Of a DNA stretch of 64,000 nt, positions 17,008 through 20,063 are shown in pieces; the stretch's first letter is position 1, and each line of letters starts with the position of its first letter. The position numbers and the translations under genes were made by a program. The stretch lies in the NCBI RefSeq assembly GCF_988243305.1, contig NZ_OZ547136.1; one strand, 5' to 3'. The notes under the pieces were generated by a model, which searched no databases, was not told the DNA's origin, and saw only the letters and a list, made by a program, of their open reading frames with translations.

Positions 17008-17298
17008 TTACCCCCTTGCGCGTGGTTTCTTCACACCCGGAACAGTGGCACGACCTTCCGCCACATCCTGACCCCGGCCGGTCAGTTCAGCGATGAAATA
17101 ACCGTTAACAAGCGTGCGCTTACGCACCAGTCCCTGCTCAGCAAGCCAGGCAATGTGGGTGTGAACGGTGTCGCGGGACACGCGGTGGCCGTAATCATCC
17201 AGGCAGTCCTGAAGCACGGATTCGCCCAGTTCGCCGTTGTAATCCGCCAGCGACCGCAGAATGACAAGACGCTGATCTTCAGTAATGAAATCACTCAT
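17008..17298 (-). CDS. hypothetical protein, possible winged-helix DNA binder
   Basis: 96-aa ORF tightly packed in late operon. Confidence 0.4.
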   Translation of the reverse strand: MSDFITEDQRLVILRSLADYNGELGESVLQDCLDDYGHRVSRDTVHTHIAWLAEQGLVRKRTLVNGYFIAELTGRGQDVAEGRATVPGVKKPRARG

Positions 17299-17602
17299 TG
17301 TGTTTTTTCCTTACAGCCTGCTCCAGCAGCAGTTCGTTCTGGTGGGAGACGGATTTCAGGGTGGCATTGGTGGCCTTAAGCTCACCGCGCAGGGTGGTGA
17401 TTTCGATATTGAGTCTGTTCACCTCCTGCTGCGTGGGCAGGCCGGAAATCCGGCTCTCCACCCGCTCAACCCGGTCGGAGAGTTTTTCAAAGGCCTCGCG
17501 GGGGACAAAGGTTTTGCGCATCAGCGCCATAAAGATCCCCCCGGCCGTGGCTGTTGCCGACAGGATCGGCACGACATAATCTTTAACGATGCTGACCCAC
17601 AT
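17291..17602 (-). CDS. hypothetical membrane/coiled-coil protein
   Basis: 103 aa with N-terminal hydrophobic segment followed by coiled-coil-like region. Confidence 0.45.
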   Translation of the reverse strand: MWVSIVKDYVVPILSATATAGGIFMALMRKTFVPREAFEKLSDRVERVESRISGLPTQQEVNRLNIEITTLRGELKATNATLKSVSHQNELLLEQAVRKKHNE

Positions 17603-17810
17603 GACCGGCCTCCATGATGCTCTGGCAGTTCACACAACGGATGGCATCCGGCACGGCAACCAGACGGGCGGCCGGAATGTCACCCCCGCAGTCTGCGCAT
17701 ACACGCCTGCCCGGAGTCTCCTCCACCCGGCACTTACGTGTCAGCCGGTCACAAAGGGCGCGTTCTGTTGCCCGCTCCACGACTGCCTGAGCACAATCTG
17801 AATCATCCAT
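17583..17810 (-). CDS. TraR/DksA-family C4 zinc-finger protein
   Basis: CxxC-(17)-CxxC motif (CADCGG...CVNCQ); start placed at internal Met (MDDSDCAQ) because the longer ORF overlaps the o-spanin gene. Confidence 0.6.
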   Translation of the reverse strand: MDDSDCAQAVVERATERALCDRLTRKCRVEETPGRRVCADCGGDIPAARLVAVPDAIRCVNCQSIMEAGHVGQHR

Positions 17811-17820
17811 ACCTTTTTCC

Positions 17821-18147
17821 TTACTTCGTCTTTCCTGCCGGAACAGCAGTCGTTCCGGCCATATCAGTAAATTCATGCTGTCGCTGTGCCTCCAGACGGC
17901 GGATGCTGGCCTTGTCCACGTTGCAGTTCTTAATCACCGCCAGCAGTTGCAGGTTGTAAGTGACCGATGCGCCAAACGTGAACGGCTGCGGCACAGGAGG
18001 AACCAGACAGTCAGCCAGCCATTCAGCGGGGATCGGCACCGGCTTCACCGGCACGTATTTCACAGACGGCCCGCCGCACCCGGTCAGCCACATCATCAGG
18101 CACAGGAACAGAGGCCGCAGGCACCGTTGCCAGCGACCGGCGGACAA
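17821..18147 (-). CDS. o-spanin (Rz1-like outer-membrane lipoprotein)
   Basis: Lipobox L-T-G-C after a hydrophobic stretch, proline-rich mature region; candidate TTG start; overlaps 3' end of i-spanin gene in another frame. Confidence 0.4.
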   Translation of the reverse strand: MSAGRWQRCLRPLFLCLMMWLTGCGGPSVKYVPVKPVPIPAEWLADCLVPPVPQPFTFGASVTYNLQLLAVIKNCNVDKASIRRLEAQRQHEFTDMAGTTAVPAGKTK

Positions 18148-18373
18148 TGCTCTGCTGTTCCTCGCTGTGCTGCATGTTCTGCTGTTTTTCATTCGTGGCC
18201 GCCTTACTGATTTGTGAAATGAGTTGCAGGGTACGTTGCTGGTTTGCCAGCACCAGACGGGCTTCGTCCCGTTCACGCACAAGCACATGATTATTGTCTT
18301 CAAGACGCTGTGTCTTCTGGTGCATTCCCCATACCACGGCAGCCAGCACGCTCATCACCCCCAGCGCCGCCAT
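18023..18373 (-). CDS. i-spanin (Rz-like)
   Basis: N-terminal TM segment (AALGVMSVLAAVVW) followed by Gln/Glu-rich coiled coil; start uncertain (ATG at 18373 or upstream GTG). Confidence 0.4.
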   Translation of the reverse strand: MAALGVMSVLAAVVWGMHQKTQRLEDNNHVLVRERDEARLVLANQQRTLQLISQISKAATNEKQQNMQHSEEQQSIVRRSLATVPAASVPVPDDVADRVRRAVCEIRAGEAGADPR

Positions 18374-18485
18374 ACACCCTCCGGCAATCAGGGCCGGTAA
18401 GGGATTATTCACCGCAGCCACAGCACACCCCGGAGCACCACAACGACACACAACAGCGCAATCATGAGTGGTCGCCAGAAGCGGT

Positions 18486-18986
18486 TCAGACTTTCGGCAA
18501 ATCGTAGCGACATAACCATTCATCCGCCGAACGGCGGGCCTCAAGACCGGGGAGTTTTACCCCCTTTGAATAAATCCAGCGGATATACTGCTTACAGGAC
18601 GCGGGCATCTGCCCGGCATTGATCAGGCGCAGAAGCGTGGAGTTGCGAAAGTTCGTTTCACCGGCCCAGAAGATCCACGAAGCCAGCGCCACCGTCTGAC
18701 CACGGGTAAGCGGCACCTGAACATGACGATCGATAGCCGCAAAGGCCCATTTCATGTCCTTTTCCAGCAGTTCCAGACATTCTTCATCGGTTTTTGTCAT
18801 ACCCGGTTTCACATCCGGGCCGGTATGGCCGTGGCAGATGGTGGGGGTGCCGGTGGGGTCGAGATACGTGGTGTTTTCTTTCCCTTCCCAGTAGCCGGTG
18901 TAGTGCGTGGCAATAGTGAACGTCCCGGCTCCGGCCAGAACAAGGGCAATCAGCTTTTTACGCAGTGGCGCGGGGAGTTTTGGCAT
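18486..18986 (-). CDS. endolysin, lysozyme-like with N-terminal signal-anchor-release (SAR) segment
   Basis: 166 aa; hydrophobic N-terminus LIALVLAGAGTFTIA then lysozyme-like body. Confidence 0.7.
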   Translation of the reverse strand: MPKLPAPLRKKLIALVLAGAGTFTIATHYTGYWEGKENTTYLDPTGTPTICHGHTGPDVKPGMTKTDEECLELLEKDMKWAFAAIDRHVQVPLTRGQTVALASWIFWAGETNFRNSTLLRLINAGQMPASCKQYIRWIYSKGVKLPGLEARRSADEWLCRYDLPKV

Positions 18987-19057
18987 TGTTACGCTGTCTC
19001 ATGGTGTTCTCTGAGCCAGCGTAACCGTGGGAAAAAGGGGGCAGGATTTGCGGAATA

Positions 19058-19480
19058 TCAGAAAAGCCGGGGCTGCGTGCGCTCCTGATGCAGGCGACGC
19101 TGGTTGCGGATAACGGAGTAAATCTGCGTCTCTGACATCTGGTAATGGCGGCGCAGGGTTTCAATTTTTTCGCCCTGGCTCCAGCGGGAAAAAATTTCAT
19201 TATTGCGCAGTTCGGTGAAAAGGGATTCACCGACCGGGAGATAATAACCACGCCCGCCCATGTACCCGGCCTGTGCGGCTGCAACCTTACGGGCAAGCAT
19301 TCCCGCCTGAGCAGGTTCAATCCCCTGACGGTGCAGTTCAGCACTGATCACATCAACCAGGTCCCGCAGCGTGCCGGGCCAGTTCTTTTTCAGCTCATCA
19401 TCAGGAATATCATCCAGACGGTCAATCAGCGCGTGCAGCTGTTCGCTGTCACCAAACATGCTCATCTGTGTTTCAGCCAT
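19058..19480 (-). CDS. Mor/C-family transcriptional activator
   Basis: 140 aa, C-terminal region resembles Mu Mor/C as I recall it; located between gemA-like gene and lysis genes. Confidence 0.7.
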   Translation of the reverse strand: MAETQMSMFGDSEQLHALIDRLDDIPDDELKKNWPGTLRDLVDVISAELHRQGIEPAQAGMLARKVAAAQAGYMGGRGYYLPVGESLFTELRNNEIFSRWSQGEKIETLRRHYQMSETQIYSVIRNQRRLHQERTQPRLF

Positions 19481-19550
19481 ACCCGCCTCCGGTCATCATT
19501 ACACAGGGCAAGTTTAAAATAAAAATCCCGCGCTGTGGCGGGATTTGGGG

Positions 19551-20063
19551 TTAAAAGGGGGAGGATTCTTCATACAGCCTGCAAACGCGCTCATAACTCA
19601 TCACTGTACGCGCTGACATCCCCAGCACATCCAGCATCTTGCGGCGGTGCCAGCGTTTGAGACGCTCCAGCACATCAGAGGCCAGCGCGGGGTGTTGTTC
19701 CAGCCACTGCCAGTTAGCCACACCTTCGCCGCCGTTCTGAGCGACCGTCTGCGATTTCACCCAGCGGTTAAGGGCTGTTTCCCCGCCATCAGAGATAAAG
19801 CCCTGCCGGTGCATCACCTTCCAGATGGCGCGAATTTTGGCGGTCACCGTACCCGGTTTTAAGGCCCGGTTAACCGGCTTCTGACGCACTTTAAAACCGC
19901 GTTTTTTGAAAACATCCAGCACGCGGGATAACTCATCCGGTGACATATCCCGGCAACTGGGTTTACCGGTGGCTGCCAGTAGTACGGATGTGTAGGTCTC
20001 ATGGTCAAGCTGTAGATCGCGTTTTGCGACATGTATTAAGGTAATCAGGGAAGCGCGATTCAT
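19551..20063 (-). CDS. GemA-like protein (Mu gp16 family)
   Basis: 170-aa ORF immediately upstream of the Mor-like gene, Mu order. Confidence 0.65.
   Translation of the reverse strand: MNRASLITLIHVAKRDLQLDHETYTSVLLAATGKPSCRDMSPDELSRVLDVFKKRGFKVRQKPVNRALKPGTVTAKIRAIWKVMHRQGFISDGGETALNRWVKSQTVAQNGGEGVANWQWLEQHPALASDVLERLKRWHRRKMLDVLGMSARTVMSYERVCRLYEESSPF

Follow-up and report, generated by a model that had tools for sequence, protein, structure and literature searches.

We found that positions 17821 to 18421 of the DNA analyzed here (the window, a stretch of 64,000 nucleotides [nt] from contig NZ_OZ547136.1 of RefSeq assembly GCF_988243305.1) very probably encode the two-component spanin of a Mu-like Escherichia coli prophage, with the genes for the inner-membrane subunit (i-spanin) and the outer-membrane subunit (o-spanin) in the "overlapped" arrangement. 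We assigned the pair to the two-component, overlapped class using the definitions of Summer 2007 and Kongari 2018. It was identified as a spanin because of matches to PHROG and Pfam families, synteny with the Mu lysis cluster, and conservation of the reading frame, the start, and the lipobox. What we observed in this DNA are the genes, their frames, their family membership, their conserved starts, signal features, and predicted helices. An initial annotation had proposed an overlapped i-spanin/o-spanin pair at this place. We found that curated family matches, a lysozyme gene of the signal-anchor-release (SAR) type before the pair, a DUF2730 gene after it, and the Mu gene order all support that proposal. 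The spanin genes adjoin the endolysin gene, as the lysozyme gene ends at 18486, and the releasin-type DUF2730 gene lies at 17602-17291.

All genes of the region are on the minus strand. The o-spanin frame differs from that of the i-spanin; it begins within the 3' part of the i-spanin gene, as had been claimed, and extends 202 nt past the i-spanin stop. Counted from ATG 18192, the two genes overlap by 170 nt (18192-18023), and we found the same layout in relatives. The o-spanin gene (17821..18192; ATG 18192, stop TAA 17823-17821) encodes 123 amino acids (aa). The open reading frame (ORF) that contains it (18303..17821) encodes the L-T-G-C lipobox noted in the initial annotation, as CTG ACC GGG TGC (18087-18076) with the Cys codon at 18078-18076. 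The protein matches Pfam PF23793 LysC ("Rz1-like lysis system protein") at 7.9e-17 and 61.4 bits (gathering cutoff, 27), and the match begins at residue 34, which is the lipobox. It also matches the PHROG spanin families phrog_3001 (1.1e-40) and phrog_456 (6.5e-19). The overlapping frame, the ATG start, and the lipobox are kept in relatives down to ~35 to 40% identity.

We considered ATG 18192, TTG 18147, and the RefSeq starts GTG 18039 and GTG 18063 as candidate o-spanin starts. The sequence comparisons indicate that ATG 18192 is most likely the start. In tblastn searches, the 123-aa version aligns from residue 1 with the annotated o-spanins of Klebsiella phage Mulock and Shigella phages SfV and SfIV, whose annotated starts are the homologous ATG. 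The start of Mu gp23.1 (MMQNKK) is homologous as well and yields the Q61 and W65 numbering used in published mutagenesis (PMC9239132). We compared 70 unique variants of the family, taken from viral contigs and genomes, and nearly all of them have an ATG 38 codons 5' of the lipobox Cys. In the nearest diverged clades (L043, L045, L046, and L050), no start other than the ATG at -38 lies far enough 5' to allow a signal peptide, apart from a GTG or TTG codon next to it, at -39, in L043 and L050. Conservation of the ATG despite different overlapping i-spanin residues (N-E here, H-A in SfV) suggests that the start codon itself is under selection. The sequence TAAGG is found 9 nt 5' of ATG 18192.

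In the initial annotation, the o-spanin appeared to start at a TTG, presumably TTG 18147. This would be the same spanin pair, with the o-spanin made from TTG 18147 instead of, or in addition to, ATG 18192, including initiation at the TTG as a minor site. We consider this improbable. In its favor, all 27 close relatives have this TTG, GAGGA lies upstream of it, and it would place the Cys at position 24, after a canonical lipoprotein signal of 23 residues (MSAGRWQRCLRPLFLCLMMWLTG, followed by the Cys), which is a typical length. However, this TTG is kept only in the close E. coli clade and is absent at the homologous position in L043, L045, L046, and L050, whereas the ATG is found family-wide. 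Furthermore, TTG is a weak start codon, and its spacing from GAGGA is ~11 to 12 nt.

Starting from ATG 18192, we predicted a lipoprotein signal peptide of 38 aa (18076..18192, coordinates including the Cys codon) that ends in LTGC, with Cys39 as the lipidation site. The signal peptide contains 7 Lys or Arg residues, no Asp or Glu, and a 10-residue h-region, PLFLCLMMWL. It is unusually long, and this length is common to the family. We judged the lipobox by rule, using the consensus [LVI][ASTVI][GAS]C (PMC6139136). The relatives carry LTGC, LSGC, LIGC, LTAC, or LVAC. The initial annotation had named the lack of a lipoprotein signal and the lack of conservation of the overlapping frame as grounds for rejecting the pair; we found a lipobox by rule and an overlapping frame that is conserved. 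The residue at +2 after the Cys is Gly. In the Lol pathway, lipoproteins without Asp at +2 are sorted to the outer membrane, and Gly at this position fits outer-membrane sorting by that rule. The mature protein would be 85 aa long and is Pro-rich, as had been noted from the sequence, with 10 Pro residues (11.8%), of which all but one fall within its first 35 residues. It has two further Cys residues, Cys24 and Cys52, and Cys52 sits in a C-N-x-D-K-A motif that is invariant in the family.

The i-spanin gene (18023..18421; GTG 18421, stop TGA 18025-18023) encodes 132 aa and is supported by its PHROG match, by selection, and by alignment of its start. Its frame (ORF 18544..18023) matches phrog_214, an Rz-like spanin family, at 3e-30. 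A word-based protein search with the i-spanin returned only near-identical E. coli and Citrobacter proteins. We also noted that the phrog_214 profile matches the i-spanin at positions 16 to 127 and the o-spanin at 138 to 175, which suggests that phrog_214 contains fused or read-through spanin gene calls.

The alternative i-spanin starts are GTG 18412 (129 aa) and ATG 18373 (116 aa, the RefSeq model). We found that GTG 18421 aligns exactly with the ATG or GTG start of diverged relatives, in which the i-spanin is 40 to 51% identical, and that it lies 4 nt past a GGGGTG Shine-Dalgarno sequence. In Logan contigs, gene callers likewise put the homologous start at the equivalent of GTG 18421. The segment from 18412 to 18374 behaves as coding in the i-spanin frame; thus, ATG 18373 is probably not the start. 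From ATG 18373, moreover, the hydrophobic stretch is only ~15 residues, too short for a membrane span. We concluded that the i-spanin most likely starts at GTG 18421, with GTG 18412 a close alternative. The range given in the initial annotation ended at 18373, and the likelier start is 48 nt outside it.

From GTG 18421, the N-terminal transmembrane (TM) segment spans approximately residues 8 to 33, and the mean Kyte-Doolittle value is 2.22 over residues 12 to 30. An AlphaFold2 model (15-sequence alignment; mean predicted local distance difference test score, 77) has a helix at residues 8 to 98 that comprises the TM and periplasmic parts, a break at 99 to 108, and a second helix at 109 to 127. 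The break is a Pro-rich hinge, TVPAASVPVP. The model predicts an Rz-like layout with a long helical periplasmic domain. Of the TM and coiled-coil protein first proposed, the TM part holds, with a hydrophobic N-terminal segment and a predicted helix, and the coiled coil was not borne out by a crude heptad test, which is given below. The periplasmic Cys of the i-spanin is Cys120; a Cys available in the periplasm in both subunits is found in most spanins (PMC6139136). Cys120 and the two further Cys residues of the o-spanin might thus form disulfides between the subunits.

RefSeq gives a different account of both genes. In this prophage family, the protein that it names "Rz1-like lysis system protein LysC" has 72 aa (GTG 18039) or 80 aa (GTG 18063) (e.g., WP_005136374.1; L002, 3562-3780; L008, 1998-2240), and these 72- and 80-aa proteins occur in roughly a thousand contigs or more. 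The upstream gene, called "hypothetical protein" or "endopeptidase," starts at ATG 18373 here (116 aa), at the equivalent of 18451 in 91%-identical strains, and in Citrobacter as a 132-aa form. That these models are correct is very improbable. They are the deposited annotation of identical or near-identical sequence, and ATG 18373 has a strong GGAGG 4 nt upstream. However, both LysC starts are 3' of the lipobox Cys (18078), by 13 and 5 codons, and leave no signal peptide, so the product would have no route to the outer membrane. In addition, the lipobox is where the Pfam LysC model begins, and GTG 18039 reads GTT in two relatives. For the i-spanin, the Prokaryotic Genome Annotation Pipeline assigns three different starts in near-identical DNA, and ATG 18373 is further opposed by the short hydrophobic stretch and by the coding-type substitutions in codons 18412-18374 described above. 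We concluded that the RefSeq LysC models are truncated and wrong, as they lack the signal peptide and the lipidated Cys. Start-site errors of this kind hide spanins from automated searches (Kongari et al., PMC6139136).

We computed the ratio of nonsynonymous to synonymous polymorphism (pN/pS) for each frame over 27 distinct relatives that are 90 to 100% identical. Up to the lysozyme stop, pN/pS is 0 to 0.09 in the lysozyme frame. From 18412 to 18193, it is 0.20 to 0.28 in the i-spanin frame (0.20 for 18412-18374 and 0.28 for 18373-18193), and from 18022 to 17824, the nonoverlapped part of the o-spanin gene, it is 0.17 in the o-spanin frame. The remaining frames in these three segments have pN/pS of at least 1, apart from one uninformative value in the tail of the lysozyme gene (0.45, from three variable sites). 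Where the two spanin genes overlap, it is mainly the i-spanin frame that is constrained as far as the lipobox Cys (pN/pS, 0.10 to 0.27), and past the Cys, both frames are. The selected frame thus switches at the boundaries expected from the gene models, which shows that two genes are truly encoded here in two frames and that neither is a chance ORF. In GC-rich DNA, long alternative-frame ORFs are common, and several mechanically called ORFs overlap the region on both strands, but a chance open frame in or after a single real gene has next to no probability and is ruled out by the strong family matches of both frames and the substitution patterns, with purifying selection on the o-spanin frame beyond the i-spanin stop, a conserved lipobox and start, and no family match for the plus-strand ORFs across the region.

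By analogy with characterized spanins, we propose the following model, in which lipidation, sorting, complex formation, and membrane disruption are taken from the literature. The i-spanin would be anchored in the inner membrane by its N-terminal TM helix, with its largely helical domain reaching into the periplasm. Cys39 of the o-spanin would be lipidated and the signal peptide cut by signal peptidase II, and the 85-residue Pro-rich mature protein would then be sorted to the outer membrane. The two subunits would bind each other across the periplasm via their periplasmic domains, as do λ Rz/Rz1 and Mu gp23/gp23.1. Upon release of the SAR lysozyme, presumably with the help of the downstream DUF2730 "releasin," the peptidoglycan would be degraded. 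The spanin complex could then collapse and either disrupt the outer membrane or fuse it with the inner membrane, completing lysis. Binding of the spanin subunits to each other and their requirement for outer-membrane disruption were shown for Mu gp23.1 and λ Rz/Rz1 (PMC9239132, PMC5295617). Mutants in λ RzRz1 or Mu 23.1 fail in lysis and persist as spherical cells stabilized by Mg2+, and λ RzRz1 rescues the Mu 23.1 amber mutant (PMC9239132).

Several points weigh against the assignment to a working spanin of this type. The i-spanin has no meaningful match in NCBIfam or in the Pfam copy that we searched; its close homologues carry a weak precomputed PF10828 match. It has no basic residue ahead of its TM segment, and in a crude test of hydrophobicity at heptad a and d positions, it scored no better than shuffled sequences (P, 0.3 to 0.5). 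The PROSITE lipoprotein rule places the Cys at positions 15 to 35, and Cys39 of the o-spanin is beyond that range. Finally, the prophage may not be inducible.

The closest characterized system is Mu gp23/gp23.1, which are experimentally shown spanins (PMC9239132). The Mu lysis cluster consists of the SAR endolysin gp22, the spanins gp23 and gp23.1, and the DUF2730 "releasin" gp25, with no holin (Chamblee et al. 2022, PMC9239132). Like Mu, the window has the order SAR lysozyme, i-spanin, overlapped o-spanin, small zinc-finger gene, and DUF2730, and the synteny extends to GemA and a Mor/C-family gene before the lysozyme and to gp27 after DUF2730. The overlap between the spanin genes is 140 nt in Mu and 170 nt in the window. 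The window o-spanin is 43% identical to Mu gp23.1, and both have the LTGC lipobox and the C-N-x-D-K-A motif. Their ATG starts are homologous (MMQNKK in Mu and MKNSR in the window). Mu gp22 and the window lysozyme share the E-x8-D-x5-T motif and a basic N terminus before the SAR domain (PMC9239132). In contrast, the i-spanins are only ~20% identical. The Mu i-spanin starts inside the 3' end of the lysozyme gene, whereas that of the window starts 98 nt further on and a 36-codon ORF is found there instead. The signal peptide of the window o-spanin is also 10 residues longer than that of Mu, and its C-terminal tail is different.

The Rz-Rz1 pairs of SfV, SfIV, and SfII and the Mulock pair, from lambdoid and other temperate phages of enterobacteria, are overlapped as well and, as in the window, have the o-spanin ATG 38 codons before the Cys. 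The window o-spanin is 35 to 38% identical to those of SfV, SfIV, and Mulock over residues 1 to 105 and belongs to the same PHROG and Pfam families. However, the spanins of SfV, SfIV, SfII, and Mulock follow a holin and an endolysin in lambdoid cassettes, and their i-spanin start overlaps the endolysin stop. The window o-spanin has an HEF...AG tail and a second periplasmic Cys that are both missing from the SfV-type protein, and the SfV-type i-spanin has a conserved hinge Cys that is absent from the window i-spanin.

Two other systems are more distant. P2 LysB/LysC is likened to the window pair by family only, LysC being the namesake of PF23793, for which the window o-spanin is above the gathering threshold. 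P2 lysB and lysC also form an overlapped pair; the P2 cluster, with a holin (Y) and LysA, is not Mu-like. The functional prototype is λ Rz/Rz1, with the same component types and presumed mechanism as here, a likeness drawn from layout. Spanins of the λ type consist of a type II inner-membrane protein with two helical periplasmic segments and a short Pro-rich outer-membrane lipoprotein with periplasmic Cys residues (PMC6139136, PMC5295617). λ Rz1 is fully embedded in Rz, whereas the window o-spanin extends 202 nt beyond the i-spanin. The window spanin pair is thus a system of a known kind, and the prophage that carries it had already been sequenced and annotated in part. As one more overlapped spanin of the Mu/SfV/P2 type, it has no biological novelty, and its value is in the corrected gene models.

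The genes form an overlapping chain through the cluster (lysozyme, a small ORF, i-spanin, o-spanin, zinc-finger gene, and DUF2730). From the lysozyme gene to the gene after DUF2730, each consecutive pair overlaps, by 34, 13, 170, 56, 20, and 8 nt. The lysozyme gene (18486..18986) is the first gene of the lysis cluster. Its product matches Pfam Phage_lysozyme (6.8e-36) and the endolysin family phrog_7 (3.6e-51). Reading its N terminus, we found K3, R9, K10, and K11, followed by the weakly hydrophobic, Gly/Ala-rich segment LIALVLAGAGTFTIAT; the mean Kyte-Doolittle value is 1.39 over residues 12 to 30, and the catalytic motif is E34-x8-D43-x5-T49. These are features expected of a SAR endolysin, and we predict that the lysozyme is one.

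Between the lysozyme and i-spanin genes, we found an unannotated, hydrophobic small ORF (18409..18519, minus strand), MVMSLRFAESLNRFWRPLMIALLCVVVVLRGVLWLR, of 36 codons from ATG 18519 or 34 codons from ATG 18513. Its overlaps with the 3' end of the lysozyme gene and with the i-spanin start are 34 and 13 nt long, respectively, and its stop (TGA 18411-18409) is 10 nt after the i-spanin start codon. The ORF is open and of similar length in ~20 peptide variants, including one from Edwardsiella anguillarum and those of clades in which the i-spanin is only 40 to 50% identical; its length changes in frame only. Its frame has pN/pS of 0.22 to 0.29 within the E. coli clade. The ORF occupies the site where the Mu i-spanin begins and resembles the N-terminal TM segment of Mu gp23 (z, ~4 versus shuffled sequences). 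It is absent from Mu, SfV, and one Mu-like relative (L051). In a random-substitution test, the probability of keeping both the open frame and the uncharged core was 0.09 to 0.15 per diverged lineage and ~0.30 for two close E. coli lineages.

Other results weaken the case for the small ORF. Between clades, its pN/pS is ~0.7, which speaks less for an ORF that is maintained. Its most invariant residues, L-R-G-V, are those encoded by the i-spanin Shine-Dalgarno sequence. A profile search of 1.84 billion proteins returned two true clusters and two repeat-protein artifacts, and the ORF is called as a 34- to 36-aa protein only in unnamed Logan predictions. It has no family match in Pfam, NCBIfam, or PHROG, and a scan of species-representative genomes with the small-ORF alignment gave no confirmed match.

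Taken together, these comparisons make it probable that the small ORF is a gene. It would be a 5' remnant or duplicate of an i-spanin gene that is probably still translated and coupled to the i-spanin start. More tentatively, and with some doubt, it may encode a functional inner-membrane lysis peptide, a TM-only derivative of an i-spanin 5' end, instead of a decaying remnant. Such a peptide might modulate lysis, e.g., by pairing with the i-spanin or with the SAR domain of the lysozyme, or the ORF might set i-spanin translation by coupling. It is one candidate for an extra membrane peptide in a type of cluster that has been reported to be holin-less. Pfam and PHROG scans gave no match to holin families within the cluster, where this uncharacterized 34- to 36-aa membrane ORF is present.

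In the overlap between the small ORF and the i-spanin gene, the sequence varies between clades, and the ATG or GTG is always 4 nt after the Shine-Dalgarno sequence. We rejected a programmed frameshift joining the two, as there is no slippery site, and an RNA structure in the gap from the lysozyme gene to the i-spanin gene, for which the z-score was -0.66 with almost no covariation. An upstream extension of the i-spanin gene, whose frame is open to 18544, was ruled out by pN/pS of 2 to 3.3 there; the small ORF has NTN codons, which put a T at the end of each codon in the i-spanin frame, and this is why that frame is free of stops. In L028/L136 (IMGVR_UViG_2526164665_000023; locus, ~1540-1660), a 1-nt insertion, which reflects either a sequencing error or natural frameshift variation, joins this upstream extension to the first 9 codons of the small ORF.

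The gene after the o-spanin encodes a TraR/DksA-type zinc-finger protein (17583..17876, minus strand) and is the counterpart of Mu gene 24 by position. It matches Pfam zf-dskA_traR (2.2e-11) and TIGR02419 (6.9e-18). RefSeq starts it at ATG 17810 (75 aa), which has a better Shine-Dalgarno sequence than ATG 17876. Across clades, we found that in 17821-17876, pN/pS over a common stretch of 36 nt is 0.37 in the +1 frame (MNLLxWPERLL) and 2.32 in the o-spanin frame. The selected frame is thus the one read from ATG 17876, and this ATG is probably the start of the zinc-finger gene, which would then encode 97 aa and share 56 nt with the tail of the o-spanin gene. The last ~17 residues of the o-spanin, which are outside the Pfam domain, look like a tail imposed by this overlap. 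In L045, L048, and L139, the same 12-residue N terminus heads a different, inserted gene. The product of the DUF2730 gene (17291..17602, minus strand; Pfam DUF2730, 1.2e-22) has a hydrophobic segment at its N terminus and is a putative counterpart of gp25, the Mu "releasin" that detaches the SAR endolysin from the membrane. Counting from the lysozyme gene, the DUF2730 gene comes fourth or fifth; in Mu-type lysis clusters, it is within five genes downstream of the endolysin gene (PMC9239132).

The spanin region is the late region of a Mu-like (transposable) E. coli prophage that is transcribed from the minus strand. The window DNA is 100% identical over 1,860 nt to that of E. coli DLI.5a (NZ_CP103972), and the 781-nt spanin region is ~91% identical to a Mu-like element of O157:H7, other Shiga toxin-producing E. 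coli strains, and two Shiga toxin (Stx) phage records. We found the prophage in 230 of 5,426 complete E. coli genomes; Sp18 of O157:H7 Sakai is one example of this prophage family. On the same strand, GemA is encoded at 20063-19551, and a Mor/C-family activator is encoded directly upstream of the lysozyme gene at 19480-19058. The activator is 140 aa long, which we take to be the length of the Mu late activator C and not of Mor (129 aa), and it may be the late activator of the lysis operon. A scan of 17200-19600 for promoters and terminators found none above shuffled sequences inside the cluster; a terminator-like hairpin is present at 19546-19523.

Past the DUF2730 gene, a small gene at 17298-17008 (minus strand), named VpaChn25_0724 family in RefSeq, has only subthreshold winged-helix (helix-turn-helix) Pfam matches, and it is followed on the same strand by a gp27-family gene. 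In E. coli DLI.5a (L002; locus, 4310-4765), the prophage is broken just past the DUF2730 gene, where a truncated tail gene adjoins it. Because the window runs on into gp26-, gp27-, and terminase-like genes, its copy of the prophage is more complete than that of DLI.5a.

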